64,000 nt of DNA from an uncultured Eubacteriales bacterium (GTDB lineage Bacteria > Actinomycetota > Coriobacteriia > Anaerosomatales > JAAXUF01). This document shows positions 2,970 through 32,568 of the stretch, piece by piece. The notes beneath the pieces were generated by a model, which saw only the letters and a list, made by a program, of their open reading frames with translations, did not search any database and had not been told where the DNA came from. The DNA is taken from NCBI GenBank assembly GCA_964521195.1, contig CAZFRE010000001.1:334317-398316 (forward strand), given 5' to 3'. Made by a program: the position numbers and the translations under genes. Numbering within the stretch: the stretch's first letter is position 1; every line of letters begins with the position of its first letter.

Positions 2970-4010
2970 TCACTCACGTACCAGCGACACGTCGTCGACG
3001 TACGCGGAGCTACCCGCGCTCACCACGCCCGATGCATCGACACTGCTCGCGCCCGCGAGCAGGACGCTGACGCGTGCGAGGACGGCACCGTTGGGGGCGG
3101 CACCCGCGACGCCCAGCCGAGCGAACGAACTTGCGCCGACTCCGGCGGACGCGCCGGTGGTGCTCGTCTCGGCGAGTGATCGGCCGGACTCGTCGAGGTA
3201 GGAGAGGCGAAGTTCGACACCCTCGGGTGCGTAGCCGGTCATCGCCCAAGCTGCCGCGCGGTATGAGGTCCCGGCAACGACGCTCGTCTCCTGCGACAGC
3301 TCGGTCCGGCCGCCGGGGTCAGCGTCGGGGTTGAGCAGCTTGAGTGAGTTGCGAGCGGTGCGGTATGTCTTCTTGGCGTGCTTGGTCCGCGTCTCGTCCC
3401 ACTGCTCGTTCGCCGTCCACCACACCGGTTTCTCGGGAGCGCTGCTCCAGCTGCGTGCCCACGTGTTGAACGAGCCGTTGCGCAGCAGATTCGAGGGTGC
3501 CGGGCTGTTCTTGATGCGGTCGAACCGAGCCGGCACGTACCCGAAGTCGAGATCGTCGCGCAGCCGGTGGATGCGGCACACCGCGACCTTGCCGTTGCCG
3601 GACTCGTAGGCAACGTAGTAGGTGTGCTCGGGGTCGAGCCAGCCGTAGAACAGCCGGATGTGGTACCCGCGCTTGAGCATCGCGTCGCCCGGCTTGAGCT
3701 CAGAGGACTTGATGCGGTGGGCGACATTGCGGAACGAGCGAGTCGACCACGACGTGCCGGTCTTCCAGCACATCGACACGTAGCCCGAGCAGTCCGTCCG
3801 GTAGCCGGCGTGGTACTTCGACTGGCTATAGCCCACGGGCGAGTCGACCCAGCGCTGGGCGCGAGCGAGCACGTCGTTGCGCGTGATCGCGGATGCCGGC
3901 GCCGCGCATGAGAGCGCGATGGCGCACGCGAGTACGAGTGTGCGCCCGACCGGCGGGCGTCCACGCCGCGTCCGGGCTGTCTTCGTCGAAGCGATGGTGA
4001 CTGTGTCCAT
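2970..4010 (-). CDS. NlpC/P60-like cell-wall hydrolase fused to a C-terminal carbohydrate-binding-like beta-sandwich
   Basis: Signal peptide. Cys nucleophile context YRTDCSGYVSMCW followed by HIRLFYGW. The C-terminal half (LLRNGSFNTW...YVDDVSLV) resembles CBM4/9-type modules. GGAGG lies 10 nt upstream of the ATG at 4010. Confidence 0.65.
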   Translation of the reverse strand: MDTVTIASTKTARTRRGRPPVGRTLVLACAIALSCAAPASAITRNDVLARAQRWVDSPVGYSQSKYHAGYRTDCSGYVSMCWKTGTSWSTRSFRNVAHRIKSSELKPGDAMLKRGYHIRLFYGWLDPEHTYYVAYESGNGKVAVCRIHRLRDDLDFGYVPARFDRIKNSPAPSNLLRNGSFNTWARSWSSAPEKPVWWTANEQWDETRTKHAKKTYRTARNSLKLLNPDADPGGRTELSQETSVVAGTSYRAAAWAMTGYAPEGVELRLSYLDESGRSLAETSTTGASAGVGASSFARLGVAGAAPNGAVLARVSVLLAGASSVDASGVVSAGSSAYVDDVSLVRE

Positions 4011-4119
4011 GGGGCCGTTCACCTCCGGCTTCGGTATCGGCGCGAGGGCGGTGTTCCGTGAGCGTCGCGAGGCGATTGCGCCGAGCGCCGGTGACGCTCG
4101 TCACCGGCCATGCGCTACC

Positions 4120-4890: not shown

Positions 4891-7662
4891 ATGATGTCCG
4901 CTCGCATACGAGTGTCGGCCGCACTGTCCGCTGCGGGGCTCGTGTGCGCGCTCGTGTGGGGGGCGAGCCCGGCATTCGCTGCGACCGCCGAGGACGCAGC
5001 CTCCGAGTTCGTCATCGGCACGGTCGTCTCGGCACAGCCACGATTGGTCGCCGAGACCGGCGTGATCGTCACCGATGTCGAGGTCGTGCAGGCCGCACCG
5101 GGCGGGGGAGTCGAGGTCGCCGGGTTCGCCATGCGCGGCGGCGAGATCGGCGACATGGGCATGTGGTCCGAGCAGTACGTGGCCCTCTCACCGGGAGATC
5201 CGGTGCTCGCGCCGGTCGAGGAGATCGGCGGCGCGGTCACCGCTGTCGGCGCGCCCGTCTCGGGGGTGGCCGCTGTCAGCGCGGGCTACATCTGGGAAGG
5301 TCTGAGCTGGCCCGACAGTTCGCTCCCCGTGCACTACCGGTTCAATCCCTCAGGCATGCCGACGGGGTCTGAGTCCGCCGTCATCGCGAGCGCCGACGCA
5401 TGGGAGAACGATGCTGGCTCGTACATGGACTACACGTACGACGGCACCACGTCGACGTCAGCCGGTGCCGCGGACGGGGTGAACGTCGTCGGCACGGGCG
5501 CTCTCGGCGCCGGGGGCCCACTGGCGGTGTGCCAGTACTGGTACAACCCTTCGACGATGTCGATCGTGCAGTTCGACATACAGTTCAACGTCTCGAACTA
5601 CAGCTTCGCGACCAACGGAAGCGGGTCGGCGTACGACGTTCGCGCCGTAGGCACGCACGAGTTCGGGCACACGCTGTGCCTCTCGGACATGTACGAGGCC
5701 GAGAACGCCAACCAGGTGATGTATGGCTACGTGACCGCGGGCGACCTGTCCAGCCGTACCCTCAAGTGGGGCGACATCGCGGGAATCCGCGCCATCTACC
5801 CCAGTCCCGCCGGCTCGCTCTCGGGCACCGTCACCGATGCCGTGGGCACCGGGCTCTCGGGTGCGTCAGTCTCGGTACCAGGCAGCCCGGCGGTCCTGAC
5901 GGGCGCGAGCGGGACGTACGCGATCTCCGGCATCGAGCCCGGGGCCTACGACGTCACGTACTCCAAGCCCGGCTACATCAGCCGGACCCTGAGCGTCACC
6001 ATCGCCGATGACGGGAACACGGTGAGCAACGTGGCGCTGTCCGCTCCGCCGGCAACCACGGCAAGCGTGTCGCCGTCGACGGCGCTGAGCTCGTGGATCG
6101 CCACGTCGGCGACGGTGAGCCTGTCCGCGTCGGCGAGTACCGGGACGATCGCGTGGACGCACTACGCCGTGAACGGCGGTGCCGAGCAGGCCTACGCGAC
6201 GCCGTTCGTCATCTCAGGCGAGGGCACCACGACGATCGGGTACCGCTCGCAGGACTCGCACGGCAACCTCGAGACCTCGAAGACCGCCGCGGTCCGCATC
6301 GATCTGTCCGCGCCCGTGACGACGCTCGTGCGCCCCGGAGCCACCTATGCCGCAGGCGCGGGCGGCTGCTTGAGCCTGGTCGCAAGCGATGCGCTGTCAG
6401 GTGTCGCGACCACTTCGTGGCGACTCGGTGCGAGCGGCGGCTTCAAGTCGGGAACGGCGGTTCCGGTGCCGGCGGCAGTCGGCACCTACACGATCCAGTA
6501 CTTCTCCGTGGATGCGGTCGGCAATGCCGAGGCCGTGCAGTCGTCGCAGTTCGCGGTCATCAGCGACGCCCTGCCCCCGGTCACCACGAGCGACGCGAAG
6601 GCGCAGTATGACACGTCCGCCAGGGTGTCGCTCACGGCCACCGACCTCGTCTCGGGCGTGGCGAGCACCCATTGGCTGCTCGACGGTATCGCCGGCACCG
6701 GCACGACCATCGACGTCGCCGCCTACGGAAACCACTCGTTGAGTTTCTGGTCGATCGACGGCGTCGGCAACGCGGAGACGCCGAGTGCTGTCAGCTTCTT
6801 CGTGCGCGATGTGACCGCTCCGACGGTCAGCGCGTTCGTCGACGCTCTGAACACCGAGAACGCGACGATTGAATTGCGCGCTTCGGACGAGGCGCATGGG
6901 AGCGGCGTCGCATCGATCTCCTATCGGCTCGACGACGAGGCCACCCAGACCGTCGCGGGTGCCTACACCACCGTGACTCCGTCGCAGGGCGTGACGCACA
7001 CCGTCACGTACTGGGCGAACGACGTCGCGGGCAACGCCAGCTCGCCCGGTTCTGTCACGCGCAAGGTGATCGGGCCGACGCGTTTCCTGCTCGATACGCT
7101 GCCGTCCCCCGTGGCGCCGGGTGCATTCGTGACACTATCGGCTCGCGTCGAGACGTTCTCGGCGGTCGCGCCTGTGGCCGGTGAGAGCGTCATCCTGCAG
7201 GTCAGCAATGGCGGCGTCTGGTCGAAGGCCGTGCCCACGGGAGCCCTGGTAGCCGAGGACGGCTCCTTCACGTTCGAGTTCTCGCCACTGCAAAGCGCCA
7301 CCTACCGGTTCTCGACATCACCGGGCACCGCTCTGCGCTACGGCGTGAGCGACCCGTTCGTCATCGGGGTGCGCGCGCTGGTCACCCGTCCTTCGGCGCC
7401 GAAGTCACCCATGGCGAAGCGCACCTTCTCGGTCTCAGGCCGGGTGACTCCGAAGCTCGCAAGCACGGCTCGGCTGAAGTGGTACCGCGTGAAGAGCACC
7501 GGCAAGAAGTACTACGCCGGCAAGACCGTCTCGCTCTCGTCGACCGGCAAGTGGACGGCCAAGCGCAGCCTGCCGAGGGGGACCTGGGCGGCGCGGGTGG
7601 TCTACACAGACCCGTTCGGCGTTGTGACGACGAGTTCGTACCGGACGTTCAAGGTGAGGTAG
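4891..7662 (+). CDS. secreted metzincin (matrixin/snapalysin-like) protease with CarboxypepD_reg-like domain, about 4-5 Ig-like (OmpL47/CHB_HEX_C-type) repeats and a C-terminal beta-sandwich
   Basis: Signal peptide ...SPAFAATAED. Zinc site HEFGHTLCLSDMY (HExxHxxxxxD). SGTVTD..G..L.GA.V.....TG..G.Y.I.G..PG.Y resembles carboxypeptidase-regulatory/PEGA modules. Repeats carry the signature ...SGVA.T.W.L.G......G.H...Y.S.D..GN.E. Confidence 0.8.
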   Translation: MMSARIRVSAALSAAGLVCALVWGASPAFAATAEDAASEFVIGTVVSAQPRLVAETGVIVTDVEVVQAAPGGGVEVAGFAMRGGEIGDMGMWSEQYVALSPGDPVLAPVEEIGGAVTAVGAPVSGVAAVSAGYIWEGLSWPDSSLPVHYRFNPSGMPTGSESAVIASADAWENDAGSYMDYTYDGTTSTSAGAADGVNVVGTGALGAGGPLAVCQYWYNPSTMSIVQFDIQFNVSNYSFATNGSGSAYDVRAVGTHEFGHTLCLSDMYEAENANQVMYGYVTAGDLSSRTLKWGDIAGIRAIYPSPAGSLSGTVTDAVGTGLSGASVSVPGSPAVLTGASGTYAISGIEPGAYDVTYSKPGYISRTLSVTIADDGNTVSNVALSAPPATTASVSPSTALSSWIATSATVSLSASASTGTIAWTHYAVNGGAEQAYATPFVISGEGTTTIGYRSQDSHGNLETSKTAAVRIDLSAPVTTLVRPGATYAAGAGGCLSLVASDALSGVATTSWRLGASGGFKSGTAVPVPAAVGTYTIQYFSVDAVGNAEAVQSSQFAVISDALPPVTTSDAKAQYDTSARVSLTATDLVSGVASTHWLLDGIAGTGTTIDVAAYGNHSLSFWSIDGVGNAETPSAVSFFVRDVTAPTVSAFVDALNTENATIELRASDEAHGSGVASISYRLDDEATQTVAGAYTTVTPSQGVTHTVTYWANDVAGNASSPGSVTRKVIGPTRFLLDTLPSPVAPGAFVTLSARVETFSAVAPVAGESVILQVSNGGVWSKAVPTGALVAEDGSFTFEFSPLQSATYRFSTSPGTALRYGVSDPFVIGVRALVTRPSAPKSPMAKRTFSVSGRVTPKLASTARLKWYRVKSTGKKYYAGKTVSLSSTGKWTAKRSLPRGTWAARVVYTDPFGVVTTSSYRTFKVR

Positions 7663-9627: not shown

Positions 9628-10488
9628 ATGGGATGCACGCGAGGGCACGCACCGGAAGCGCGCAGTGCGCTGCGCGCGCTTGGCGCGGCCGTCGCCGGGT
9701 CTGCGCTGGTCGTCGCGGTGTTTGCGGCGACGCTGATGGCACTTCCCGTGACCGCCTCGGCGTTGACCGCGCCCGCCGCCGAGCCCACCGGCAGTGTCGA
9801 GCCCACCGGCACCACCGAGCCCACCGGCAGTGTCGAGCCGACGACCGTAGTGTCGCAGGTCACCACCCGCTCGATCGGGGTCACCGTTCGCGGGCGGCCG
9901 ATCGTGCTCGAACGGTTCGGGTCGGGTTCGCGGCACATCCTCATCGTAGGGGGCCTCCACGGCGACGAGGCCGGCGGGCTACTCGGCGCGCGGTTCAAGG
10001 CGTACCTGCGGTCGCACCCCTCCGCCATTCCCACGGACACGGTCGTCGACGTCATCGCATACGCGAATCCGGACGGCCGGGCTCTCAAGCGCCGAACGAA
10101 CGCGCGCCGGGTCGATCTCAATCGCAACTTCCCGGCGAGCAACTGGACCCGCAAGCACCCGCGCGGCACCCCATCGCACGGCAAGAAGGCCGCCTCCGAG
10201 CCCGAGACCCGCGCGCTGGTCAGGCTGCTGGCCGACGAGAAGTACCTGCGCGTCATCACCCTGCATTCGCGCGGCGGATTCATCGACCCGGACGGCGCCG
10301 GCAGTCGTGCGCTCGCCAAACGCATGGCGCGCGCCGCTCATATCCGAGTGGTCAACCTGCCCGCGTACAACGGCTCGATGGGCAGCTACGTTCCCGAGAA
10401 GCACCGCATCCCGATCGTGACCTGGGAGTTGTCGAGCCGCACGCTCACCAAGCGCGTGCGCAACGGGCTGCTCGCGGGCCTGCGGTAG
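9628..10488 (+). CDS. M14-family zinc carboxypeptidase / murein peptide amidase-like
   Basis: Signal peptide. ILIVGGLHGDEAGG (HxxE zinc site), NPDG, VDLNRNFP, SEPET..L. Confidence 0.75.
   Translation: MGCTRGHAPEARSALRALGAAVAGSALVVAVFAATLMALPVTASALTAPAAEPTGSVEPTGTTEPTGSVEPTTVVSQVTTRSIGVTVRGRPIVLERFGSGSRHILIVGGLHGDEAGGLLGARFKAYLRSHPSAIPTDTVVDVIAYANPDGRALKRRTNARRVDLNRNFPASNWTRKHPRGTPSHGKKAASEPETRALVRLLADEKYLRVITLHSRGGFIDPDGAGSRALAKRMARAAHIRVVNLPAYNGSMGSYVPEKHRIPIVTWELSSRTLTKRVRNGLLAGLR
9781..9852 (+). repeat. 18-bp in-frame tandem repeat (3.5-4 copies) encoding an EPTG(SV/TT) linker
   Basis: gagcccaccggcagtgtc / gagcccaccggcaccacc / gagcccaccggcagtgtc / gagccgacgaccgtagtg, read directly. It lies inside the M14 peptidase just after the signal peptide. 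Confidence 0.9.
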
Positions 10489-10503
10489 TCGGGAGGCCAG
10501 TGC

Positions 10504-12309
10504 ATGCCAGTGCGCACCATCCGCGTCGACTGCGCCGCCGAGCAGACCGTCTTCGAGGGCTGGGGGACGTCGCTTGCGTGGTGGGCGAACGCGGTGGGAC
10601 GTTGGCCCGCCGAGCAGCGCGCGCCGCTTCTGCGCCGACTCTTCACGCTTGATGCCGGCGGCCTCGGGCTCACGATCGCGCGCTTCAATGCGGGCGGCGG
10701 CGAGCGGCCGGGCACCCAGACGACGATGATGCCGCGTGCGGTCATGGACGGCTACCGGTCGCGGCCGGGCGCGCCGTTCGACGAGACCGCCGACCCTGGT
10801 CAGCGCGCCGTGCTGCGCGAGGCCGCAGCGCTCGCCTCGGCGTCGGGTGACGAGCTCGTGGTGGAGCTGTTCGGCAACTCGCCTCCATGGTGGATGACGC
10901 GCTCGGGCAGCGTGACCGGCGACTCGCTCATCGGCCGAATCCCCGCACCCAATCTCGCTCCCTCGTTCGAGCGCGACTACCTCGCCTACCTTGCCGAGGT
11001 CGCGTCGTTCGTCGAGCGCGACGCCGGCGTACGCGTGGAGTCGATCTCGCCGGTCAACGAACCGACGTCACAGGCGTGGGCGCTCGGCGGGCGGCAGGAG
11101 GGCTGCACGTATTCGCTGCGCGGTATCGACCGGCTGCTCTCGCGCTACGCCGAGGAGCCCGCGCTCGCTGGCGGCCACGTGGTCGCGGGTACCGAGGAGT
11201 GGGGGCTGCACGAGGCGGTGCGTACGTTCGACGCACTCGGCTCCGTCGCTCGCGGCGTCCTCGGGCGGCTCAACACGCACACGTACCGCGGCGCTTCGCG
11301 CTCGGCGGTTCGGGCTCGCGCGGTGCGTGCCGGTCTCTCTCTGTGGCTGTCGGAGTTCGGCGAGGGCGGCCCTTGCGGCTACGAACTCGCGCTCGCCATC
11401 GTGCGCGACCTGCGGGAGCTCGCACCGAGCGCGTGGGTGCTCTGGCAAGCCGTCTCGCCCGACGACTGGGGACTCTATCGCCTCACGCACGGCGGCTCGC
11501 GCGCCGAGGTCGCACCCAAGTTCGAGGTCTTCTCGCGGTTCACGCGCTCGATCCGCCCGGGCATGCGCCTGCTGGGCACCGACGACCCGCATTCGGTCGC
11601 CGCGCGCGGCGGCGGGCGGCTTGCCGCGGTCCTCCTCGGCAGCCTCACCGCCGAGGAGGACGTGCACCTCGACTTTGGCGCTCCTGCGGCCGGTGCAGGC
11701 GTACCCGCCGTGGTCACGGTCGCATCCGCGCTCTGCGGTGGGCTGCCGGAGCGTTTCGAGGTGCACGCCGGCGACGGGACCGTGCGGTTCTCGTTACCGC
11801 GGGGAGCCATCGCGTCGGTGGAGCTCGCCGCCGCCGACCCGTCCGCCGCCGAGCAGGGCTATCGCGGCTGCGGCACGTGGCGGCTCGTGCACGGGTCGGG
11901 GCAGCAGCTCGGTCTCGCGGTCGCGGGCGATGCCGAGTTGCGAGCAGGCGTGCGCGCGATCGGTGTCGCTCCGGACGATCGTGCCGCCGTGCAGCGCTGG
12001 CGTGCCGAACCATGTGGCGGTGGCGACGTGCGATGGGTGTGCGAGGCCTCCGGCTGCCAGCTCGACGTGGCGTACGCATCGCGTCGCCACGGGGCGCCGG
12101 TAGTGCAGTGGCGTGCCCGACTCGCCGAGAAGACCCCGCTGCATTGCCGCTTCGCCGTGCGCGAGGTCGGCGACGGCGCCTTCGAGCTGATCGCGCGCCA
12201 CAGCGGCCTCGCGCTCGCGCTGGACGGTGCCGGTAGAGCGGTGACGCAGCGGCCCGGTGACGCGGCCACGCGGTGGCGTCTCGTTCGCGCGACCGGGGCG
12301 CGATTGTAG
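10504..12309 (+). CDS. glycoside hydrolase family 30-like enzyme with C-terminal ricin-B lectin domain
   Basis: N-terminal Q.FEGWGTSLAWWAN pattern typical of GH30/O-glycosyl hydrolases. C-terminal region has QxW-like repeats (VQRW, VVQW, TRW). GGAGG lies upstream of the ATG. No signal peptide is visible. Confidence 0.65.
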   Translation: MPVRTIRVDCAAEQTVFEGWGTSLAWWANAVGRWPAEQRAPLLRRLFTLDAGGLGLTIARFNAGGGERPGTQTTMMPRAVMDGYRSRPGAPFDETADPGQRAVLREAAALASASGDELVVELFGNSPPWWMTRSGSVTGDSLIGRIPAPNLAPSFERDYLAYLAEVASFVERDAGVRVESISPVNEPTSQAWALGGRQEGCTYSLRGIDRLLSRYAEEPALAGGHVVAGTEEWGLHEAVRTFDALGSVARGVLGRLNTHTYRGASRSAVRARAVRAGLSLWLSEFGEGGPCGYELALAIVRDLRELAPSAWVLWQAVSPDDWGLYRLTHGGSRAEVAPKFEVFSRFTRSIRPGMRLLGTDDPHSVAARGGGRLAAVLLGSLTAEEDVHLDFGAPAAGAGVPAVVTVASALCGGLPERFEVHAGDGTVRFSLPRGAIASVELAAADPSAAEQGYRGCGTWRLVHGSGQQLGLAVAGDAELRAGVRAIGVAPDDRAAVQRWRAEPCGGGDVRWVCEASGCQLDVAYASRRHGAPVVQWRARLAEKTPLHCRFAVREVGDGAFELIARHSGLALALDGAGRAVTQRPGDAATRWRLVRATGARL

Positions 12310-13918: not shown

Positions 13919-15772
13919 GTGTCGGGGCCTGCCTCCCGGCGGATTGGACCAGCAGTGAGCCTCAGGACCAGCAGTCACGCCACAACCCGCGGCGCCGCGG
14001 CAGCCTTCGTGCTGCTCGCGGCCGTTGCGTATGGCGCATCTGCGGTCACGGCAGCCCGCGCCGACAGCCCCCACCTCAGCGCATCGACCGACACCTCCAG
14101 CTGTGCGGCTTGCCACTGGAGCCATGCGGCCACGCACCCCACACTCACGCGCAGTACCGACGCCTCCGACGCCGTCACGCCGACGTGCCTGTCGTGTCAC
14201 AGCGGTGTGGATGATGAGATCTCGAACGTCACGAGTGGCACGGTCGACTCGTTCTCGCTGCCATCCGGGCATTCGATAGATCCCGACTCCGGACTCGACG
14301 CGCATATCGCCGGCTGCGAGACGTGCCACGACATCCACGGGTCCTCGGAAGAGACGCGACGCACTCCTGCGCGGACGATCAACGGGGTCTCGGTCTCCTC
14401 GGCGGACAAGCAGACGTGCGTGGCCTGCCACGCGTCATCTGAAGACTGGTTCGGTGCAGGCTACCCCGCAACCGACAGCCCGACTCGCGACGCGACCGGC
14501 TACCCCGTGGCCGGCACATGGCCCGGTCCGAGCACGTACGAGTCCCAGACCAACGCACACCGTCTGATCCCCGAATCGACACGCACGGTCGGCGTGAGCG
14601 AGCCGATCATGCGCGAGGAGGGCTCCTGCCTCTACTGCCACGCCGCTCACGGCGCAGCCAACGCCTACGACGGCCTCGTGACCACGTACACGGTTCCGAG
14701 TACCGCCACGCTCGAGGCGGACCGCACGGATGGTGACTACGCGGCCGTGTGCTTCGAGTGCCACGGCGGCTCCACGCCGGCGGGCTTCGATGACCGGCCC
14801 GTCGATATCAAGCAGTTCGCGACGGTATCCGGCGCAGGCGGCCACTCGATCGTCACGAGCGGTGGGGCACTACCGGTCGGCGCGCAGCTGCCGTGCTTCG
14901 AGTGCCACAACCCGCACGGCTCGACGCGTGGCAATGCGGCCAACATCTCCGATGAACTCGGCGGCTCCCTGGCGACCACGAGCGCTGCCGGCGTCCGTGC
15001 GTTCTGCTTCACCTGCCACACCACGAGCGACACGGTGGCCGGGTGGAGCAGCACCGACGAGACGTACACCCCGGTGGTGTGGAGCGACGAGGTCGTGGGA
15101 TTGCCGCGTGAGGGTGCACTGCTGAACCTGCCGGACACGGCGGGGCACAGCCAGGAAGACACCGCGTCGTGCTACGAGTGCCACGGTGACGACTACAACG
15201 AGGATGGCAACAACGTTCACAACCCGGCCGACCCGCACGCCGGCCGGTTCGCCATCGCGGCGCCGCTCGGCGAGAGCATGCTGACGACCCCGACAGTCGA
15301 GGCGACTTCGAGTGTCGACGCATCCGCATCGCTGGATGCCAGCGCGAGCCTCGTGGCGACCGGCAGCATCGTGGCGACCGGCACCGTCGTCGTGCCCGAT
15401 GCCGGCGTGCCGAGCGAACCGTCATCCGGCGTAGCGGCGGCCGACCTCATCGCGCCACTGACCGCCTCCGACGCGGTCGCCACCTACAGCGTCACTGCGA
15501 CGATCACGTTGACTGCGGCCGATGACGCCGGCGGGAGCGGGGTCGCCGAGACGTTCTGGTCGCTCGACGGCGGTGAGCTCTGCACCGGCACGGTCGTCGC
15601 GACGTCGACGCCGGGCACCCACACGCTCACGTTCTGGTCGGTGGATGTGGCGGGCAACGCCGAGCCGGCCAACACCGTCGACTTCACGGTCGAAGACGCC
15701 CTGACGTACTCGGCGATGCCTGCGCTGATCGCCCGGCGCGGCTGGGTGATCGGCGAGCGCTCGGGCAGCTAG
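13919..15772 (+). CDS. exported multihaem c-type cytochrome (9 CxxCH) with C-terminal Ig-like surface domain
   Basis: Signal peptide ...AAVAYGASAVTAARA. CxxCH motifs: CAACH, CLSCH, CETCH, CVACH, CLYCH, CFECH, CFECH, CFTCH, CYECH; several appear as CxxCHxxHG. The C-terminus has ...DDAGGSGVAETFWSLDGG...GTHTLTFWSVDVAGNAE. The GTG start is uncertain. Confidence 0.75.
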   Translation: MSGPASRRIGPAVSLRTSSHATTRGAAAAFVLLAAVAYGASAVTAARADSPHLSASTDTSSCAACHWSHAATHPTLTRSTDASDAVTPTCLSCHSGVDDEISNVTSGTVDSFSLPSGHSIDPDSGLDAHIAGCETCHDIHGSSEETRRTPARTINGVSVSSADKQTCVACHASSEDWFGAGYPATDSPTRDATGYPVAGTWPGPSTYESQTNAHRLIPESTRTVGVSEPIMREEGSCLYCHAAHGAANAYDGLVTTYTVPSTATLEADRTDGDYAAVCFECHGGSTPAGFDDRPVDIKQFATVSGAGGHSIVTSGGALPVGAQLPCFECHNPHGSTRGNAANISDELGGSLATTSAAGVRAFCFTCHTTSDTVAGWSSTDETYTPVVWSDEVVGLPREGALLNLPDTAGHSQEDTASCYECHGDDYNEDGNNVHNPADPHAGRFAIAAPLGESMLTTPTVEATSSVDASASLDASASLVATGSIVATGTVVVPDAGVPSEPSSGVAAADLIAPLTASDAVATYSVTATITLTAADDAGGSGVAETFWSLDGGELCTGTVVATSTPGTHTLTFWSVDVAGNAEPANTVDFTVEDALTYSAMPALIARRGWVIGERSGS

Positions 15773-15778
15773 CGCGTC

Positions 15779-17269
15779 TCACTCGCGCTCCCACTTCATC
15801 GATCGCCTGACCGCCTCGCTCCACAGCACGCGCAGCGCCTCCATCCGAGCGACCTCGTCGGGCTGCGCCGGGTAGGTCTGCGCGACCGCTCGGAGGAGCG
15901 GGAGGTCGTCGGGTCCTGCGAACACGCCAACCGCGAGTCCTGCCAGGTAGGCGGCGCCGAGCGCGGTCGACTCGGCGAGTTGCGCGACTTCGACGGGGCG
16001 GTCGAGTACGTTGGCGAGCGTCTGCATGACAAGCGAGTTCACCGTGACGCCGCCGTCGGCGCGCACGGATTCCAGGTTGTGGCCGGCGTCTGTCTCCATC
16101 GCCACCATGAGGTCGCCCACCTGCAGCGGGATCGCCTCCATCGCCGCGCGTGCGATGTGCGCGTCGGTGGCGCCGCGCGTCAGACCGAAGATCGCGCCAC
16201 GCGCGAGCGGGTCCCACTCAGGAGCGCCGAGCCCCGTGAGCGCGGGCACGAATACGACGCCGTTACTGTCCGGCACCGTCTCGGCGAGCGCCTGCGCGGC
16301 GGCGGGGGAGTCGGCGAGCTTGAGGCCTTCGACCACCCACTGCACCACCGCGCCGCCCATGAAGATGGAGCCCTCGAGCGCGTACTCGAGCTCCTCGCCG
16401 ATCTGCGCCGCGACAGTGGCCGCGAGCACTTCCGAGTGTGGGCGGGTGGTTCCGGAGTGCATGAGCGCGAAGATCCCCGTCCCGAACGTCACCTTCGCGT
16501 CGCCCGCCGAGAAGCACCCGTTGCCAACGAGCGCCGCCTGCTGATCGCCCACGATCGATGCGACCGGGATCGCGGCGTCGAACACGCCTGCGGCGGTCGA
16601 ACCGACCACCTGCGACGAGCGCACGACCTCTGGCATGAGCGCCCGCGGTACGCGAAACAGGCCGAGCAGTTCGTCGTCCCACACGCCGCGCTCGATGTCG
16701 AAGAGCAACGTTCGCGACGCGTTCGAGGAGTCGGTGGCGTGCACGGTACCGCCGGTCAGCTGCCACACGAACCAGGTGTCGACCGTCCCGAACGCGAGCT
16801 CGCCCGCCTCGGCCCGCTCGCGCGCACCCTCCACGTTGTCGAGCACCCACGCGATCTTGCTCGCCGAGAAGTACGGGTCGATCGGCAGGCCGGTCTTGGC
16901 GCGAACGCGCGGGCCGACGCCGGTGGCCGCGAGCGCCTCGCACGTCTCGGCGGTTCGCCGGTCCTGCCAGACGATCGCGTTCATGAGCGGCTCGCCGGTC
17001 GCGCGGTCCCACACGATCACGGTCTCGCGCTGGTTCGTCACGCCGAGCCCGGCGATATCGCCCGCCTGCACGCCCGCCTGCACGATGGCGTTGCGAGCGC
17101 ACTCGAGCTGGTTGTTCCACATGAGCACAGCGTCCTGCTCGACCCAGCCAGCCTGGGGAAACACCTGCGGCAGCGGTATCTGCACCTGTGCGAGCTTCCG
17201 GCCCAGGTCATCGAAGACGATCGCCCGGGAGCTGGTCGTACCTTGGTCGAGCGCGAGGATGAACGACAT
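15779..17269 (-). CDS. glpK: glycerol kinase
   Basis: MSFILALDQGTTSSRAIVFD..., GWVEQD, TNQRET..VWD. ORF trimmed to the ATG with AAGGAG upstream. Confidence 0.95.
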   Translation of the reverse strand: MSFILALDQGTTSSRAIVFDDLGRKLAQVQIPLPQVFPQAGWVEQDAVLMWNNQLECARNAIVQAGVQAGDIAGLGVTNQRETVIVWDRATGEPLMNAIVWQDRRTAETCEALAATGVGPRVRAKTGLPIDPYFSASKIAWVLDNVEGARERAEAGELAFGTVDTWFVWQLTGGTVHATDSSNASRTLLFDIERGVWDDELLGLFRVPRALMPEVVRSSQVVGSTAAGVFDAAIPVASIVGDQQAALVGNGCFSAGDAKVTFGTGIFALMHSGTTRPHSEVLAATVAAQIGEELEYALEGSIFMGGAVVQWVVEGLKLADSPAAAQALAETVPDSNGVVFVPALTGLGAPEWDPLARGAIFGLTRGATDAHIARAAMEAIPLQVGDLMVAMETDAGHNLESVRADGGVTVNSLVMQTLANVLDRPVEVAQLAESTALGAAYLAGLAVGVFAGPDDLPLLRAVAQTYPAQPDEVARMEALRVLWSEAVRRSMKWERE

Positions 17270-17424
17270 CGGAGCTCCTTCGGCTGCGCGAAGCGGATAT
17301 GTGGGTGTTGTTCCCGAGCAGGTCGTTCGCGTAGCGATTGTAGTCGTCGAGTCTTGGGAACGAACGACACGGTTCGTTACGAATTTCACGATGTCAGGCG
17401 CGGCGGACTCAGCGGAGGCTCGAA

Positions 17425-17993
17425 TGAAGAAGGGGTTGCGCGCGACGTTGTGGGTGGTGGCCGGGCTGGCGGTGGTCTTCAGCCTGGGTGCCTACAACAA
17501 GTCCATCGGGTCGGGCGAGCGGGGGAGTTTCGTCATGAACTACCCGGCGAGCGGGACCGCAGCAGGCGGCCCCTCGCCTCGGGCGCTGACGGGGCAAGTC
17601 GTCGTCTCGCTTGATGATGCGGGCGCGATCAAGCGCGCGCTCCAGCCGGATGTGATCGAGGTCGCTTCGCATGTCGTGTCCAATGTCGGCGACGTCCCGC
17701 GGCGCATCCGCTTCGAGACGGCAGGGTTCCCCTCCGGGCTCGAGTTGCACTCGCGCGATCGCGCCTGGAACCCCGTGACTCATGAGATCGAACGCGACCT
17801 GCCTCCCGGCTCCTCCGTCGACTTCGGCCTTCTCGTGCGGCTGCCGAGCCCATTGCCCGATCGGGCGGTGGCTGCCAGCGGCACCATTCGGATCGTCGAC
17901 GCGCGATCGGGAGAGCGACTGAGCTCGCTCCCGGTCCAGTTCCGGCGCGAGGGATACCCGGTGCAGGCAGGTGACTGCTGTGCACCTCAGTGA
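17425..17993 (+). CDS. membrane-anchored beta-sandwich protein ending in a CC motif (unknown function)
   Basis: ATG at 17425 with GGAGG 6 nt upstream. N-terminal TM segment LWVVAGLAVVFSL. DUF1573-like beat (HVVSNVGDVPRRIRFE...). The C-terminus is ...AGDCCAPQ. Confidence 0.55.
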
Positions 17994-18840
17994 TGGGGTC
18001 ACCCGTAACCGCCTGCGGCGTCTGGTGGGATTCGCCCTCGGTCTCGTGCTCTTCTACGCCCCGTTCGCGCTGCTGGTCCGGGGCTTCGGGATACTCTTTC
18101 CGAGCACGGCGGCAGGGACTTCGATCTCGGACGTGCACGGAGCGTGCCTTCGGATGCCGCTGGGCTGGCTGGCCCAGCCCTGGATGTGGGGAACACTGGC
18201 GAACAGCCCCGCCTCATGGCTGCCGATCGCCGTCTTGCCGCTGGCAGCCATGGCGGCAGGTCCGCTGTTCTGCGGCTGGTTGTGCCCTGCAGGCGCGCTG
18301 CCCGAGTATCTCGGCCGAGCGGTTCCGGACCGTTTCAAGTTCGACTTCAAAGGTACCGTCGACATCGTCCCGCTGCGGTACGGGTTCCTCGCAGGCATCA
18401 TGCTGGTGCCGTTTGTGGCATCGAGCATCTGCTGCTCGTTCTGCAACTTCAATCAGATGCAGTACCTGGTGGGCGGCGTGTTCGGTGATCTGTCCGGGTT
18501 CGCATACTTCAGTTCTATGGGAGTGCTCGCGGCCGCCGTATGGATCGTCCCCCTCGGCCTGTTCACTCGGGGCGGGCGTGGTTGGTGCCTGTTCCTGTGC
18601 CCGGCCGGCACCGTTCAGGGCCTGGCGTCGAAGCTCACGGCACGGCTCCCGTGGGCTGTGCGCGTGCGGCGTGACCACGGCGCTTGCACGAGTTGCGGCC
18701 AATGCGAGGATGTCTGTCCGATGAGGGCCGCGGATGCGGCTGCGGATTCTGCGCCCGACATCGACGGTCACCTGTGCATCCAATGCCAGGACTGCGTGGC
18801 CACCTGCCCTGCGGGGGCTCTGTCGTACCGGAGGCCCTGA
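17971..18840 (+). CDS. NapH/MauN-type membrane polyferredoxin (4Fe-4S binding protein)
   Basis: Two membrane CxxCP-type motifs (CGWLCPAG, CLFLCPAG) and two ferredoxin motifs (CTSCGQCEDVCP, CIQCQDCVATCP). Overlaps the upstream gene by 23 nt. Confidence 0.8.
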   Translation: MTAVHLSDGVTRNRLRRLVGFALGLVLFYAPFALLVRGFGILFPSTAAGTSISDVHGACLRMPLGWLAQPWMWGTLANSPASWLPIAVLPLAAMAAGPLFCGWLCPAGALPEYLGRAVPDRFKFDFKGTVDIVPLRYGFLAGIMLVPFVASSICCSFCNFNQMQYLVGGVFGDLSGFAYFSSMGVLAAAVWIVPLGLFTRGGRGWCLFLCPAGTVQGLASKLTARLPWAVRVRRDHGACTSCGQCEDVCPMRAADAAADSAPDIDGHLCIQCQDCVATCPAGALSYRRP

Positions 18841-19106
18841 TGGGCGATCCGAAGACACGTGCGGGCTCGTTCCTGGCTGCCGTTGGCACGCTTGGGCTGG
18901 CCGGAGTACTCACCAGGGGTTGCCCGGGGTCGTGCCAGTCATGCGTCTCGTGCGCGAACGCGCTGGTGCCGCTCGGGGCCTCGGTCGCTGCGGTGGGCGG
19001 TGCGTTCGTGACGTCGGCGGTGCTCCGCCATCGGAGCTCGAACGACCACACGGGTGGGCGAGATGCTGTGCGCAAGGCGCGAGGCGACGGCTCCGGGAAC
19101 CCGTGA
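18840..19106 (+). CDS. small 2-TM membrane protein with loop Cys cluster CPGSCQSCVSC
   Basis: ATGA overlap with the polyferredoxin stop. Two hydrophobic helices flank GCPGSCQSCVSC. Confidence 0.5.
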   Translation: MGDPKTRAGSFLAAVGTLGLAGVLTRGCPGSCQSCVSCANALVPLGASVAAVGGAFVTSAVLRHRSSNDHTGGRDAVRKARGDGSGNP

Positions 19107-19196: not shown

Positions 19197-19889
19197 GTGC
19201 GGGAGGCCGACGTGAGCGACTTCGGACCACGACGGGACTACGGGCGTATCCGCGAGCGCCCGTATCGGCATGGCAGCCACGATCGCGAGAAGCGCCTGCA
19301 GTTCACCATCGGAGTCGGCGCAGCCATCATGCTGGTGCTCGGCGCGGGAATCGGGTTCGCGCTCGGCAGGGCCACGGCGCCGACACCCGATCCCACGGAG
19401 CCTGCGACCATCGTCGAGGAGACGACGCTGCCCGCCGGCGTCATCGAGGACGTCCCCACCGAGAGCGTCGACGCGAGCTTCACCGACGACGTCACGCTGT
19501 CCGAGGAGCCCACGGAAGACGTCAAGCCGCCCACGAGGCCCAAGCAACTCGCGCCCTCCAACGGCGCGGTGATCGATGCCACGAATGTGTACCTGAAGTG
19601 GTCGAAGTCGAAGGACGATTCCGGATCGGTGACGTACTCCTTCGAGATCCAGGACCGGCTCTCGAACGGCACGTACGGCCGCACGCAGGTCATCAAGAAG
19701 CTCAAGAAGCGCCAGTACTACGCACGCGTGCTCTCAGTGAAGCGCCGTTGGCGCGTGTGGGCAGTGGACGAGGCCGGCAACAAGAGCAAGAAGAGCCCGT
19801 GGCACTACTACATCAAGAAGTACACGCCGCCGGCGACCCCGAAGAAGTCGACGAACACGTCGGACAGCAAGAGCGACGAGACGACGTAG
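19197..19889 (+). CDS. membrane-anchored protein with FN3/Ig-like ectodomain and Lys-rich tail
   Basis: TM segment IGVGAAIMLVLGAGIGFALG. Acidic/Pro linker, then ...LKWSKSKDDSGSVTYSFEI...WRVWAVDEAGNKS. Confidence 0.5.
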   Translation: MREADVSDFGPRRDYGRIRERPYRHGSHDREKRLQFTIGVGAAIMLVLGAGIGFALGRATAPTPDPTEPATIVEETTLPAGVIEDVPTESVDASFTDDVTLSEEPTEDVKPPTRPKQLAPSNGAVIDATNVYLKWSKSKDDSGSVTYSFEIQDRLSNGTYGRTQVIKKLKKRQYYARVLSVKRRWRVWAVDEAGNKSKKSPWHYYIKKYTPPATPKKSTNTSDSKSDETT

Positions 19890-19982
19890 CCACGACGCAG
19901 CTGCCGCCTGTCGTCTGACTTGCTGGGAGTCGGACCCTTCGGGCAGAAACCCCGTACAGGTCGTTCGGGTACGGAGGTGCAC

Positions 19983-21323
19983 GTGGCCGAGAACGAGTTC
20001 GACGTCATCGTCATCGGTACGGGAGTAGCGGGTCAGACCGCCGCCGAGGAGCTCGCCGCTGCCGGCAAGCGTGTCGCCGTGGTCGAGTGTCGAGAGGTCG
20101 GTGGCACGTGCGCGCTGCGCGGCTGCGAGCCGAAGAAGGCGCTGTTCAGCATCGCCGAGGCGTCCGAGCGCGCGCGGGCGCATCTCGGCGACGGGGTCAC
20201 CGGCTGTGGTCCGGTCCAGTGGTCCGAGTTGCTGGCCTTCAAGCGCACGTTCACCGATGACGCGTCCGAGGCGATCACGGGAGCGTTGACCGGCTCGGGC
20301 GTTTCGATCCTGAGAGGCGTCGCGGTCTTCTCGGACCCGAGCACCATCGTCGTGGACGGGACGCGCCACAGCGCGGACCACATCGTGGTCGCGACGGGCG
20401 CGCGATCTCGGCCCCTGGGCATCCCGGGCGAGGAACTGGTGCTGACGAGCGAGCAGTTCATGGCCGCCGAGTCGATCGGCCCACGCGTCGTGTTCATCGG
20501 CGGCGGCTACGTGAGCTTCGAGTTCGCGCACATCGCAGACGCCACGGGGGCGCGGGTGACGATCGTCCATCGAGGTGAGCGCGTGCTCGACGGTTTCGAG
20601 CCTCGACTCGCGACGATGCTTGCCGATTCGTACCGCGCCCGTGGAATCGACATCATGCTCGGAGCTCCGGTGGCTGCGCTCAAACGCGAGGGCGGCGGGC
20701 TTGCGGTGCTGCTGGGCGACGGCAGCCGCATCGAGTGCGATACGGTCGTGCACGGGGCGGGCCGAATCCCTGATCTCGAGGCGCTCGATCTCTCGGCGGG
20801 CGGTGTGGCGTTCGGGCCGCGCGGCATCGAAGTCGATGACGCCCTGCGAAGCACCTCGAATCCGCGCGTCTGGGCCGCTGGCGACGCAGCGGCACTCGGG
20901 CCGCCACTGACCCCGGTCGGCATCGCTCAGGCGCGTGTGATCGTTCGTCAGCTCCTCGGTGACACGGGAGCGAGGTTCAGACCCCCGGCCGTGCCGAGCG
21001 TCGTGTTCTCCGACCCGCCACTCGCCAGGGTGGGGCTCACCGAGGCGTCGGCCGCCGAGAAGGGCCTCGATGTCGACGTCCGGTTCACCGACATGAGCGG
21101 ATGGGCGTCGTCGCGCCGCGCAGGCGTCACCGCGGCTGGTGCCAGCATCCTCGTCGCACGAGACACAGGCATGGTGGTCGGCGCACATCTGCTCGGTCCG
21201 CACGCCGACGAGATGATCAACGTGCTTGCGACAGCGATCATGGGGGGTGTGACGGCCGGCGAGCTCAAGAGCGCGATCTGGGCGTATCCGACATCAGGCT
21301 ACGAACTCGTGTACCTGCTCTAG
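19983..21323 (+). CDS. class-I pyridine-nucleotide disulfide oxidoreductase (MerA/RclA-like variant)
   Basis: GTG at 19983 with GGAGG upstream. FAD motif VIVIGTGVAGQTAA. Redox disulfide GGTCALRGCEPKK. The C-terminal dimerisation motif reads AYPTSGYELV where glutathione-reductase-type enzymes have HPTSSEEL. Confidence 0.8.
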   Translation: MAENEFDVIVIGTGVAGQTAAEELAAAGKRVAVVECREVGGTCALRGCEPKKALFSIAEASERARAHLGDGVTGCGPVQWSELLAFKRTFTDDASEAITGALTGSGVSILRGVAVFSDPSTIVVDGTRHSADHIVVATGARSRPLGIPGEELVLTSEQFMAAESIGPRVVFIGGGYVSFEFAHIADATGARVTIVHRGERVLDGFEPRLATMLADSYRARGIDIMLGAPVAALKREGGGLAVLLGDGSRIECDTVVHGAGRIPDLEALDLSAGGVAFGPRGIEVDDALRSTSNPRVWAAGDAAALGPPLTPVGIAQARVIVRQLLGDTGARFRPPAVPSVVFSDPPLARVGLTEASAAEKGLDVDVRFTDMSGWASSRRAGVTAAGASILVARDTGMVVGAHLLGPHADEMINVLATAIMGGVTAGELKSAIWAYPTSGYELVYLL

Positions 21324-21385: not shown

Positions 21386-22366
21386 CTAGCGGACGCGCAC
21401 CGAGACGATCTGCGAAACGCTCGGGGCGAGTTCGGCGGTGCCGGCGAAGCGTGCCTGGAACTTGTACGTGCCCTTGGACGACGCGTTGTAGCGATACTTC
21501 CAGCTGGCGCTGTTCGACTTCTCGGAGTCCTTCGTCTCGACCTTCTTGACGAGGACCCACGTGCTGGAGCCGGGCTTCATGACGTAGATCGCGACCTTGA
21601 GGTCGTCCTCATTCGCACTCAGCTTGCCGGACAGCGAGACGCTCCTGCGCGACTTGTGATCGTCGTCGTCGCCGTCACGTTCGTACGAGGCGCGGAGAGT
21701 CACGGTGGTGGACGTCAAGCCGCTCGGGTCGACCGGCACCGGGGCGGTGATCGTGAAGCTCGCGGTCTTGTGGGTCTCGGCGTTACCGGCCACGTCGACC
21801 GACCAGAACTCGATGGTGTGGGAGCCGACGGTGGCGACGTTGATCGACGTGCCCGTCATCTGCGCACCGCCGTTGAGCTTGTAGTAGGTGTTGGCGACAC
21901 CGGAGCCCGCGTCGGTGGCGGAGAGCTTGATCGCCGCCGAGGAGACGTAGGTCGCCTTGGCATCCGACGTCGTCACCGGGGCGGTGGCGTCGACGGGCAC
22001 CGGGGCGGTGGCGTTCAGGATGGCCGTACCGAGCCCATCAGACGTTCCCGGCCCGGTGACGGCGAAGATCGTGTACACGTTGCCGGTGGTCACGGTGAAC
22101 TGGCCAGAGGCGCCGGCGACAGTGGTCACGCGGGTCGTACCATTGAACACGGAGACGTAGTCGGCGCCGGGGGCGCTGAAGCTGTACGTCGCGGAGGTGC
22201 CCGATGCCGAGAGAAGCGTGGTGGTGATGGTCGCGCCTGCACCGTCGTGACAGTTGCTGCATTGCGAGGTCTTGCTTGGGGTCGCCGAAGCGGTGGTGGC
22301 GAACACAGCCAGCATGCCAACCGCGATCAAGGCGACGGCCACACCGAGTCTTCCTTTGCGAATCAC
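21386..22366 (-). CDS. secreted protein: single CxxCH + Ig-like (OmpL47-type) domains + shared C-terminal beta-sandwich
   Basis: GTG at 22366 with GGAGG upstream. Signal peptide ...AVFATTASA. CSNCH lies directly after the signal peptide. ...SATDAGSGVANTYYKLNGG...GSHTIEFWSVDVAGNAE. The C-terminus has KGTYKFQARFAGT. Confidence 0.65.
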   Translation of the reverse strand: MIRKGRLGVAVALIAVGMLAVFATTASATPSKTSQCSNCHDGAGATITTTLLSASGTSATYSFSAPGADYVSVFNGTTRVTTVAGASGQFTVTTGNVYTIFAVTGPGTSDGLGTAILNATAPVPVDATAPVTTSDAKATYVSSAAIKLSATDAGSGVANTYYKLNGGAQMTGTSINVATVGSHTIEFWSVDVAGNAETHKTASFTITAPVPVDPSGLTSTTVTLRASYERDGDDDDHKSRRSVSLSGKLSANEDDLKVAIYVMKPGSSTWVLVKKVETKDSEKSNSASWKYRYNASSKGTYKFQARFAGTAELAPSVSQIVSVRVR

Positions 22367-22721
22367 GAAACACCTCCGAGAGTTGCGGGATGCGGCGGAT
22401 CCAGCGTCCGCCTTGCGAACCGTTTCGGCGGTTAGAAAGCGCATCTAGAGCCAATTCGTGCTAGCTAAGAAGACTCTAAGGGTGGCCTAATGTCCGAGAC
22501 GGCCCAGAGGGTCGAGGGCGACGCACCCGACGGTCAGTCGCTTCACCGCTCTGAGCAGGCGTGACGTGGCTGAGAGCGTGGTTGGCTCGCGCAGCCGACG
22601 CCGCGGAGCGGTCAGACCGCTCTCATCCACCGCTCTCATCTGCGGCTTCCTCTACTGTGCGCTTCGTCACAGTGTGGGCGCCGACGGGACCGCACGTCGC
22701 CAGATCGCGGCCGAGGTGACG

Positions 22722-26226: not shown

Positions 26227-26601
26227 ATGCGAGACGTGCTGTTCGTCGCCGCCGGTGGCGCCATCGGCGCCGCGTTGCGCTACGTCGTGGGGACGGCGAT
26301 CGTGGCGCGTACCGGTGAGACGTTCCCGTGGCACACTGCGGCCATCAATCTATCCGGCGCGTTTCTCATCGGCATGCTGCTGGCGATGCCGTGGGCGGGA
26401 ATGGCGACCGGCGCACCCTGGCGGCTGTTCCTCATCGTCGGCGTGCTCGGGGGCTTCACCACGTTCTCGACACTGGCATACGAGTCCATCGCGCTCGCGG
26501 CCGAGGGGCGCACGCTCGCGGGGTTCGCCAACATGTTCGGTAGCGGGATGCTCGGCCTCACGGCGGCATGGCTCGGCGTGATGACGGGCCGCGCGCTGTA
26601 G
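26227..26601 (+). CDS. crcB: fluoride ion channel CrcB/FluC
   Basis: GGAIGAALRY...INL.GAFLIG...LGGFTTFST. Confidence 0.9.
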   Translation: MRDVLFVAAGGAIGAALRYVVGTAIVARTGETFPWHTAAINLSGAFLIGMLLAMPWAGMATGAPWRLFLIVGVLGGFTTFSTLAYESIALAAEGRTLAGFANMFGSGMLGLTAAWLGVMTGRAL

Positions 26602-28898: not shown

Positions 28899-28926
28899 TT
28901 GACTTCGCGCGTCAAACGCATACCAT
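28899..28926 (+). promoter_or_regulatory. candidate sigma-70-type promoter for the nrdD leader
   Basis: TTGACT (28899-28904), a 16-nt spacer, then TACCAT (28921-28926), just upstream of the riboswitch. Confidence 0.4.
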
Positions 28927-28949
28927 ATGCTGTACCACGGTTCGCCAGA

Positions 28950-29118
28950 CCACCATATCTGGTGCTAAGAGGGAAGCCGGTGCGCCAACGCGGCAACGCC
29001 GGCGCTGCCCCCGCAACTGTAGACGGAGAGCCGCTGTCGACCACCGCCACTGGCGCGCAAGTGCTGGGAAGGCCCGACAGCCGCACTGACCCGCAAGCCA
29101 GTAGACCTGCCGTGGCGC
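28950..29118 (+). promoter_or_regulatory. cobalamin (B12) riboswitch upstream of nrdD
   Basis: Conserved blocks read directly: AGAGGGAAGCCGGTG (28968), GCCCCCGCAACTGTA (29007), B12 box GCCACTGG (29046), GGGAAGGC (29066), AGCCAGTAGACCTGCC (29096). Confidence 0.85.
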
Positions 29119-29226
29119 ACGAGCAATGTATCGCCAGGGCGGGGTGTCCCGGTGGCTTGCAGGGGGAGCGTCGACCGTCGCCTGCGCCAGCCGCAGACCA
29201 CCCGGACCTTGCAGAGGAGGACGGGT

Positions 29227-32232: not shown

Positions 32233-32339
32233 CTCTCGGCACCTGGCGGCATTGTCGGCGAGTGCGCGAGGTCCCGACCTGCGGTGCTGGCGTCGTGAGG
32301 TTCGGCTCGGCTAGACTCGCAGCGTTCACAACAGAACAG

Positions 32340-32470
32340 GCGTCATTCGGTGCCCGGGAGCGCGCAAGCGGCCTCGGGAGAATAGGGAACCCGGTGAGAG
32401 TCCGGGACGGTACCCGCCACTGTGAGCGCCGCGATGACGCGGCGTGGAGTCAGGAGACCTGCCGAGTGAT
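32340..32470 (+). promoter_or_regulatory. cobalamin (B12) riboswitch upstream of btuF-like transporter operon
   Basis: AATAGGGAACCCGGTGAGAGTCCGGGAC (32381), GGTACCCGCCACTGTGA (32409, B12 box), AGTCAGGAGACCTGCC (32448). Confidence 0.9.
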
Positions 32471-32568
32471 GCGCGACGCGGCCTTCGAGGATAGAGGCCG
32501 GCTCGCGGTGCCCGGCGATGCGACTCCAACGGCCGGCTCCCCGAACCGCTCCGCTGCACACTCGAAAG

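Follow-up and report, generated by a model that had tools for sequence, protein, structure and literature searches.

A conserved three-gene module around a distinct subfamily of NapH-superfamily polyferredoxins in an uncultured actinobacterium and its relatives

The stretch of DNA analysed here (64,000 nt of contig CAZFRE010000001.1 from assembly GCA_964521195.1, referred to as the window; GC content ~68%) belongs to an uncultured bacterium of the Anaerosomatales (Actinomycetota, Coriobacteriia). Three open reading frames (ORFs) on its plus strand at 17424-19106, termed g1, g2 and g3, each overlap or abut the next. They represent a conserved gene module, at the core of which is a distinct subfamily of NapH-superfamily polyferredoxins. 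The polyferredoxin is encoded by the central gene, g2. It is preceded by a gene for a protein with an immunoglobulin-like (Ig-like) fold and a Cys-containing C-terminal tail (g1) and is followed by a gene for a micro-protein with a loop of four cysteines (g3). Three tightly coupled genes on the same strand had already been described in a sequence-only reading of the window. The ORFs are indeed present, and their order is repeated in all related loci examined. The coordinates of all features are compiled in Table 1.

The module was defined as follows: a g1-family gene is found directly 5' of a gene of the g2 subfamily which carries H56, C59, C155 and C158, and g2 is followed by a small ORF in which C-x3(4)-C-x2-C-x2-C is located between two hydrophobic segments. 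This is the situation in the window, and the arrangement is repeated in loci L001-L009, L017, L018 and L025-L028. A genome scan with an alignment of g1 yielded ten loci (L001-L010), all from Actinomycetota or from Coriobacteriia-type metagenome-assembled genomes, some of which are mislabelled as "Eubacteriales". In this set, g2 adjoins g1 in every locus, and g3 is next in nine of the ten; L010 has a gene for a monohaem protein in place of g3 after g2. The comparison across genomes that had been proposed on the basis of the sequence-only reading thus bears out the coupling. When distant members are included, g1-g2 adjacency holds for all 21 loci for which DNA is available, and a g3-like gene is next after g2 in 16 of 19 loci. 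Among the distant loci with a g3-like small ORF are L017, L018, L025, L026, L027 (where the ORF is uncalled) and L028. Because the loci with the trio span 46-71% GC, the arrangement is no clade-specific accident.

The genes are closely spaced at both junctions. With the GTG at 17971 as start codon, g2 overlaps g1 by 23 nt, as had been read from the sequence; the overlap is 14 nt with the 286-aa protein called by NCBI. For g3, an ATGA overlap had been proposed. The junction reads TGATG, however, with one base being shared between the stop codon of g2 and the start codon of g3. The assignment of g3 as an 88-aa two-helix protein stood up.

The loop of the g3 protein reads GCPGSCQSCVSC. The conserved Cys4 pattern is CxGxCxxCxxC (R-x-CPGxCxxCxxC). 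Two Ala/Gly-rich hydrophobic segments surround the Cys4 loop, and both the N-terminus and the C-terminus are basic. By the positive-inside rule, the loop is predicted to face the outside, with both termini being cytoplasmic. Neither a Pfam match (at E 0.1) nor an NCBIfam family was found for g3, and a search of 5.8 billion proteins returned only the self-match. After homology search had given nothing but g3 itself, its orthologues were identified by position and motif. C-x3(4)-C-x2-C-x2-C is conserved in the orthologues found directly 3' of g2 in all loci that share the arrangement of the window. These orthologues show 0.38, 0.32 and 0.60 differences per site at the first, second and third codon positions, respectively. 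As differences are highest at third codon positions, the small ORF is under protein-level selection and behaves as a coding gene. The sequence-only reading had made its proposal depend on synteny, on Cys conservation in the orthologues of g1 and g3, and on translation of the small ORF; the gene order, the conserved Cys motifs of both proteins and the coding behaviour of g3 all agree with it.

The g2 protein contains two CxxxCP motifs and two [4Fe-4S] ferredoxin motifs (CxxCxxCxxxCP). It matches Fer4_5 (4.3e-11) as well as Fer4 and 4Fe-4S families from Pfam, and its best NCBIfam match is NapH/MauN (E-value 1.2e-20), which agrees with its earlier designation as a NapH/MauN-type protein with these motifs. 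Two features of NapH/MauN (TIGR02163; E. coli NapGH quinol dehydrogenase), the four transmembrane (TM) helices and the two CxxxCP motifs combined with two C-terminal [4Fe-4S] motifs, are shared. The scores of g2, however, are far below the family cutoffs (TIGR02163: 74.2 bits, cutoff 213.05; PRK09477: 66 bits, cutoff 234). The family of g2 comprises 346 matches and reaches Chloroflexota at 45-50% identity. In 123 homologues, all 16 cysteines of g2 and His56 are conserved at 89-100% (Cys154: 89%). Conservation is 99-100% for C101/C105, C206/C210, C239-C249 and C269-C279, and these show the helix and motif layout of NapH/MauN. An AlphaFold2 model (predicted local distance difference test, pLDDT, 72), from which the helix boundaries were taken, has four long helices and a ferredoxin domain, and it matches the NapH helix layout.

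An alignment that included NapH and YccM from E. coli as well as two further NapH-like proteins revealed the residues that are specific to the g2 subfamily: His56, Cys59, Cys154, Cys155 and Cys158. Within the subfamily, His56, Cys59, Cys155 and Cys158 are invariant, while Cys154 is less strict. The extra His and Cys residues are found neither in E. coli NapH nor in YccM. In the same alignment, YAPFAL, DVHxxCxRMP, WLAQPWM, (C)CSFCNF and GGRGWC are further motifs of the subfamily. g2 also differs from NapH/MauN in its partners, which are g1 and g3 rather than a Tat-exported ferredoxin. A tblastn search of plasmids with g2 resulted in other NapH-like subfamilies (YccM, NapH, and proteins from Pelobacter and Leptolinea), none of which adjoins g1 or g3; these NapH-like proteins served as outgroups. 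Sequence and profile searches of the PDB with g2 returned soluble ferredoxin domains only, and no solved structure for this type of membrane domain.

In g2, Arg and Lys residues are concentrated in three regions: the N-terminus, loop 2 and the segment that follows TM4. This argues for an N-in topology with loops 1 and 3 outside. An N-in topology has also been reported for NapH. The CxxxCP motifs, located where TM2 and TM4 end on the cytoplasmic side, and the ferredoxin clusters would then be inside. In contrast, His56, Cys59 and Cys154-158 are predicted to be outside, at the outer ends of loop 1 and TM3.

The g1 protein begins with MKKGLR, which is followed by one hydrophobic helix, and it ends with GDCCAPQ. 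Its AlphaFold2 model (pLDDT 82) consists of a helix (residues 2-24), a beta-sandwich (33-174) and a disordered tail (pLDDT <50). The earlier description as a membrane-anchored beta-sandwich ending in GDCCAPQ thus holds, with the start codon being one base further upstream than had been assumed. Only generic Ig-like, PapD and MSP sandwiches were retrieved when the model was compared to the PDB with Foldseek, and g1 does not match any Pfam or NCBIfam family. The K/R distribution is compatible with the sandwich being outside. The protein is thus probably N-terminally anchored, having an extracellular Ig-like domain and a flexible tail that ends in CC.

There are 60 homologues of g1 with at least 54% identity. 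In 21 aligned homologues (52-74% identity), the C-terminal CC is invariant. When 1.84 billion cluster representatives were searched with a profile of g1, 99 proteins were retrieved, nearly all of them stand-alone proteins of 170-230 aa. The tails were classified by the last 15 residues of 75 full-length cluster representatives of the g1 family. CC was found in 13, CH in 5, three or more His in 11, two His in 3 and a single Cys in 3 of the 75. The tails are enriched in Cys (6-fold) and in His (3-fold) over the remainder of the protein. Members from Chloroflexota are devoid of the C-terminal CC but carry an insertion, SCCxVGGP, close to the N-terminal part of the domain. The exchange of CC for CH or poly-His among the relatives points to metal ligation (of an ion or a cluster) rather than to an obligate dithiol/disulfide.

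Two alternative assignments at the g1 locus were considered. The first is that g1 may be a split-off FixG_C domain. FixG_C matches in the g1 family are weak (3 of 21 close members, best E-value 0.017; 2 of 44 diverse members, best E-value 0.043) and occur among other generic Ig-like families, and no protein of CcoG length was among the matches of the profile search. The second is an antisense ORF (17409-18002, minus strand), which was preferred over g1 by a gene picker based on GC at third codon positions (GC3). It was rejected because g1 has homologues in genomes of ~46% and ~50% GC and because the fold of g1 is confident. An antisense ORF opposite g1 appears "conserved" across loci (in L006 at 300-746, minus strand), but it arises from the conserved sense frame in DNA of high GC content and is not a gene.

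Table 1. Positions of the g1-g2-g3 module and of adjacent features in the window
Feature	Position	Strand	Remarks
g1	17424-17993	+	189 aa; start codon ATG 17424
g2	17971-18840	+	289 aa from GTG 17971; NapH-superfamily membrane polyferredoxin with four TM helices
g3	18840-19106	+	88 aa; start codon ATG 18840; two-helix hairpin
GGAGG ribosome-binding site of g1	17414-17418	+	5 nt 5' of the g1 start; direct sequence reading
GGAGG ribosome-binding site of g3	18830-18834	+	within the end of g2, 5 nt 5' of the g3 start; direct sequence reading
Exported 9-haem (9-CxxCH) c-type cytochrome with OmpL47-type C-terminal domain	13919-15772	+	associated, outside the core; Paired_CXXCH_1, MtrC/MtrF and OmpL47 domain matches
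ORF between the cytochrome and g1	15779-17389	-	
Membrane protein 3' of g3	19197-19889	+	outside the system; no match above the Pfam threshold
Class-I pyridine-nucleotide-disulfide oxidoreductase	19920-21323	+	outside the system; below all NCBIfam equivalog cutoffs
Monohaem (CSNCH) protein with OmpL47-type domain	21386-22444	-	associated, outside the core; NCBIfam OmpL47 4.4e-20

Genomic neighbours were tallied for the 18 loci with enough flanking sequence. Genes for c-type cytochromes are found within ~8 kb in six of them (the window, L002, L006, L008, L010 and L014). In the window, the multihaem cytochrome noted in the sequence-only reading ends 1.65 kb upstream of g1. The minus-strand ORF in between presumably codes for glycerol kinase, as recognised from its N-terminal sequence only. 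L006 has a homologue of the 9-haem cytochrome directly 3' of the trio, and L002 has a related C-terminal domain 7 kb upstream. Homologues of the monohaem protein are encoded immediately 5' of the trio in L008 and immediately 3' of g2 in L010. The OmpL47-type beta-barrel domain, which is named after a Leptospira surface protein, is carried by both exported haem proteins of the window (the one with nine CxxCH and the one with a single CSNCH). Further upstream (5044-7662), the window codes for a protein of 872 aa that contains matrixin-like (Peptidase_M10) and CarboxypepD_reg domains and that BLAST groups with the C-terminal region of the multihaem cytochrome. The two proteins appear to share a surface-domain module.

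Copper redox enzymes are encoded near the trio in four of the 18 loci. These are a multicopper oxidase and a cupredoxin in L018, three Cu-oxidase proteins in L014, a 1203-aa protein that is weakly multicopper-oxidase-like in L001, and NosZ/NosD plus a CopZ-like HMA chaperone and a P-type ATPase in L025. In the latter (1-2963; 10035-12276), a g1 relative with a His tail, g2 and g3 sit between the nosD/nosZ cluster and the genes for the CopZ-like HMA protein and the P-type ATPase. The trio might stand in for NosR, none being visible in that stretch.

A MacB-type FtsX/ATP-binding cassette (ABC) transporter is encoded nearby in L011, L014, L018, L026 and L027, usually together with a membrane protein having four conserved Cys (DUF4418). 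Outside the clade of the window, DUF4418 adjoins g1-g2 (L011: 4938-5369; L014: 7506-7925; L018: 11165-11620, minus strand; L026: 6539-6979). In L026, the genes for DUF4418, the MacB-type transporter and g1-g2-g3 are all on the same strand. In L027 (50% GC), DUF4418 is replaced by a 152-aa protein with the motif GCGCSTSCVC (6541-6999), and a divergent ABC operon codes for a 327-aa polytopic protein with 11 Cys (3121-4104, minus strand), so that further Cys-rich membrane partners are found in this locus. A DUF4418 homologue was not detected in the window by tblastn, and no functional literature on DUF4418 was found.

The two proteins encoded directly downstream of g3 in the window had been taken as partners, one as FN3-like and the other as a MerA/RclA-like flavoprotein. 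This could not be upheld. The label FN3-like is below Pfam thresholds, and the pair is not conserved: when L001-L010 were searched by tblastn, neither was found near the trio, except for a flavoprotein fragment at a distance of ~7 kb in L008. The other neighbours in actinobacteria are often housekeeping genes (encoding PheT, enolase, trigger factor, Ham1 or a PASTA kinase). A gene for a Pat-like protein (CoA-binding, ATP-grasp and GNAT domains) is close to the trio in two loci, being downstream in one and upstream in the other (L003: 9598-12396; L018: 4668-7328); this may be residual ancestral synteny. A gene for the fluoride channel CrcB is a few kb away from the trio in the window (26227-26601) and in L004 (10258-10746). 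A fluoride riboswitch was not detected in the window at the Rfam threshold. There are two cobalamin riboswitches on the plus strand of the window (28921-29128, 118.7 bits; 32331-32480, 85.5 bits; both from Rfam), each preceding downstream genes.

We tentatively propose, as the reading that we favour, that the products of the trio form a single membrane complex, a NapH-like transmembrane electron-transfer unit which would terminate at the outer face in a metal or Fe-S centre with Cys/His ligands and would serve exported redox proteins. Electrons would come from a cytoplasmic donor or from menaquinol. The iron-sulfur centres of g2 would carry them to the outer-face centre, which may be built by g2, g3 and the tail of g1. 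From there, they would be passed to extracytoplasmic redox proteins, these being cytochromes in the window and copper enzymes elsewhere. The g1 and g3 proteins would take the place of the FMN-binding (flavin mononucleotide-binding) domain, NapG or FixG_C of related systems. NapH-like proteins have been described as modular transmembrane electron-transfer units that work with a range of extracytosolic oxidoreductases and usually come with an FMN-binding domain (Meheust et al. 2021, PMC8238504). Such flavinylated systems (NosR, PceC/RdhC, "NapH-like" clusters) resemble the trio in having a modular membrane Fe-S protein beside varied extracytoplasmic oxidoreductases and an extracytoplasmic partner domain, and one relative (L025) is located within a nosZ/nosD cluster. 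They are characterised by an extracytoplasmic FMN-binding domain, fused or neighbouring, together with ApbE (PMC8238504). In contrast, the trio has as its outer partners an Ig-like domain that bears a Cys/His tail and a hairpin protein with the Cys4 loop, and no match to FMN_bind or ApbE was found in g1, g2, g3 or the neighbours scanned. A described system of this composition was not found in the literature, as the sequence-only reading had supposed, and g1 and g3 lack any Pfam or NCBIfam family.

Two other systems offer analogies for the small partners. NqrM is a small four-Cys membrane protein that goes with a redox complex; in NqrD/E (RnfA/E), a Cys-ligated intramembrane iron moves electrons across the membrane. 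The likeness of NqrM to g3 is by analogy only. Sequence similarity was not detected (g3 lacks a Pfam match), and the complex is a different one. The Ig-like carrier SoxY, and MerA or high-Mr thioredoxin reductases with their C-terminal CC, have a flexible C-terminal Cys arm that shuttles a ligand or electrons. This likeness to g1 is also an analogy, with no homology shown, and the exchange of CC for CH or poly-His sets the relatives of g1 apart from these systems.

Several points weigh against an electron-transfer unit for exported redox proteins. A conduit that feeds exported cytochromes had also been the first hypothesis of the sequence-only reading; cytochromes in six of 18 loci and copper redox enzymes in four speak for it, but six other loci (L003, L004, L005, L007, L009 and L017) have housekeeping neighbours only. 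The cytochrome neighbours vary in position and strand between loci. L010 and two Chloroflexota loci lack g3, and 40 of the 75 g1 representatives have none of the tail types listed above. The topology of the trio is inferred, and its cofactors are predicted from sequence motifs. We know of no route by which an integral membrane protein could receive an Fe-S cluster at its outer face. Finally, cultured members of the related order Anaerosomatales have 17-18 multihaem cytochromes per genome (PMC9686372). With so many cytochrome genes, some adjacency to the trio is expected by chance.

The main rival, which overlaps with the proposed electron-transfer unit and which we consider somewhat unlikely, is an extracytoplasmic metal reductase and chaperone, with copper as the most likely metal. 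g2 would provide electrons, as CcoG does for Cu(II), while the g1 tail and the g3 loop would bind the reduced metal and hand it over for cuproenzyme maturation or detoxification. The alternation of CC, CH and poly-His in the g1 tails is more typical of metal ligands than of an obligate dithiol, and there are copper contexts in L018, L014, L001 (weak) and L025. CcoG, which belongs to the same superfamily, is reportedly a cupric reductase; its reductase site is probably cytoplasmic. CcoG/FixG, which is involved in cbb3 oxidase assembly, has a Fer4_5 membrane domain, two [4Fe-4S] clusters and the Ig-like extracytoplasmic FixG_C domain; taken together, g1 and g2 resemble a split and reordered CcoG. 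However, CcoG is a single polypeptide while the genes of the trio are separate, and the likeness of g1 to FixG_C is not significant (best E-value 0.017, 5 of 65 member scans). Also, no ccoHIS or ccoNOQP genes (cco families) are among the neighbours scanned or listed. In the clade of the window itself, the recurrent neighbours are haem proteins rather than copper proteins, and the window ORFs scanned (5-28 kb) include no copper transporter or chaperone. In addition, more than half of the g1 family is without a ligand tail.

It is tempting to speculate that the trio is a haem- and flavin-independent electron exit, although we regard this reading as rather improbable. An Fe-S/metal-thiolate chain would lead to an extracytoplasmic cluster that is ligated jointly by the outer His/Cys3 of g2, the Cys4 of g3 and the Cys/His tail of g1. 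This would be a new transmembrane "wire" of Gram-positive-type anaerobes, feeding extracellular cytochromes, multicopper oxidases and NosZ.

It is doubtful that the trio is a transmembrane thiol-disulfide relay similar to DsbD/CcdA, which would keep exported CxxCH apocytochromes or other thiols in the reduced state. Ten Cys are predicted at the outer face, there is a vicinal CC on a flexible arm, and cytochrome c genes adjoin the trio in several loci. However, the CH or His-only tails of the g1 relatives are unable to form a disulfide, the module also occurs beside copper enzymes that have no need for thiol reduction, and no thioredoxin-fold partner is conserved alongside.

A mer-like uptake and reduction of a thiophilic metal(loid), with the downstream flavoprotein as reductase, is highly improbable. 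This had been the second hypothesis of the sequence-only reading. Its idea of metal binding gains from the switch between CC, CH and poly-His in the tails of the g1 relatives, and there are CC and Cys4 motifs in membrane proteins next to a flavoprotein that matches MerA models (2.2e-78). This match, however, is below the cutoff (264 bits versus 454), and both the flavoprotein and the gene preceding it are absent from the neighbourhood of the trio in L001-L010, so that the analogy to MerT/MerP/MerA loses its reductase. There is also no match to MerT, MerP or HMA (g1 and g3 have no family, and all matches of g2 are to Fe-S families), and g2 has redox centres of its own. Least probable of all is that g2 is simply the NapH of periplasmic nitrate reductase, where it is the quinol dehydrogenase subunit: NapH/MauN is its best NCBIfam match and the Joint Genome Institute (JGI) automatic annotation calls many homologues "ferredoxin-type protein NapH", but the score is below the cutoff (74 versus 213 bits), the extra conserved His and Cys are not present in E. 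coli NapH, and no molybdopterin reductase and no NapA, NapB, NapG or Mau family was found among the neighbours scanned in the window and in related loci.

How electrons from the cytoplasm or from quinones reach exported cytochromes and copper enzymes in monoderm anaerobes, such as subsurface Coriobacteriia-like Actinomycetota, is poorly understood. Known solutions include membrane cytochromes, flavinylated proteins (NapH-like or NosR) and proteins of the PepSY/MsrQ type. What is new here is a NapH-superfamily module that occurs across several phyla and includes two partner families not described before (an Ig-like anchor with a Cys/His tail and a Cys4 hairpin micro-protein), and an extra conserved His/Cys site of g2 that is predicted to be at the outer face. 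Many proteins which are currently labelled "NapH" or "hypothetical" are open to re-annotation, and a conserved small ORF that is easily missed, g3, gains a concrete and testable role. If the trio indeed functions in electron exit or in metal reduction, current models of extracellular electron transfer, of N2O reduction and of the maturation of copper enzymes would gain a component.

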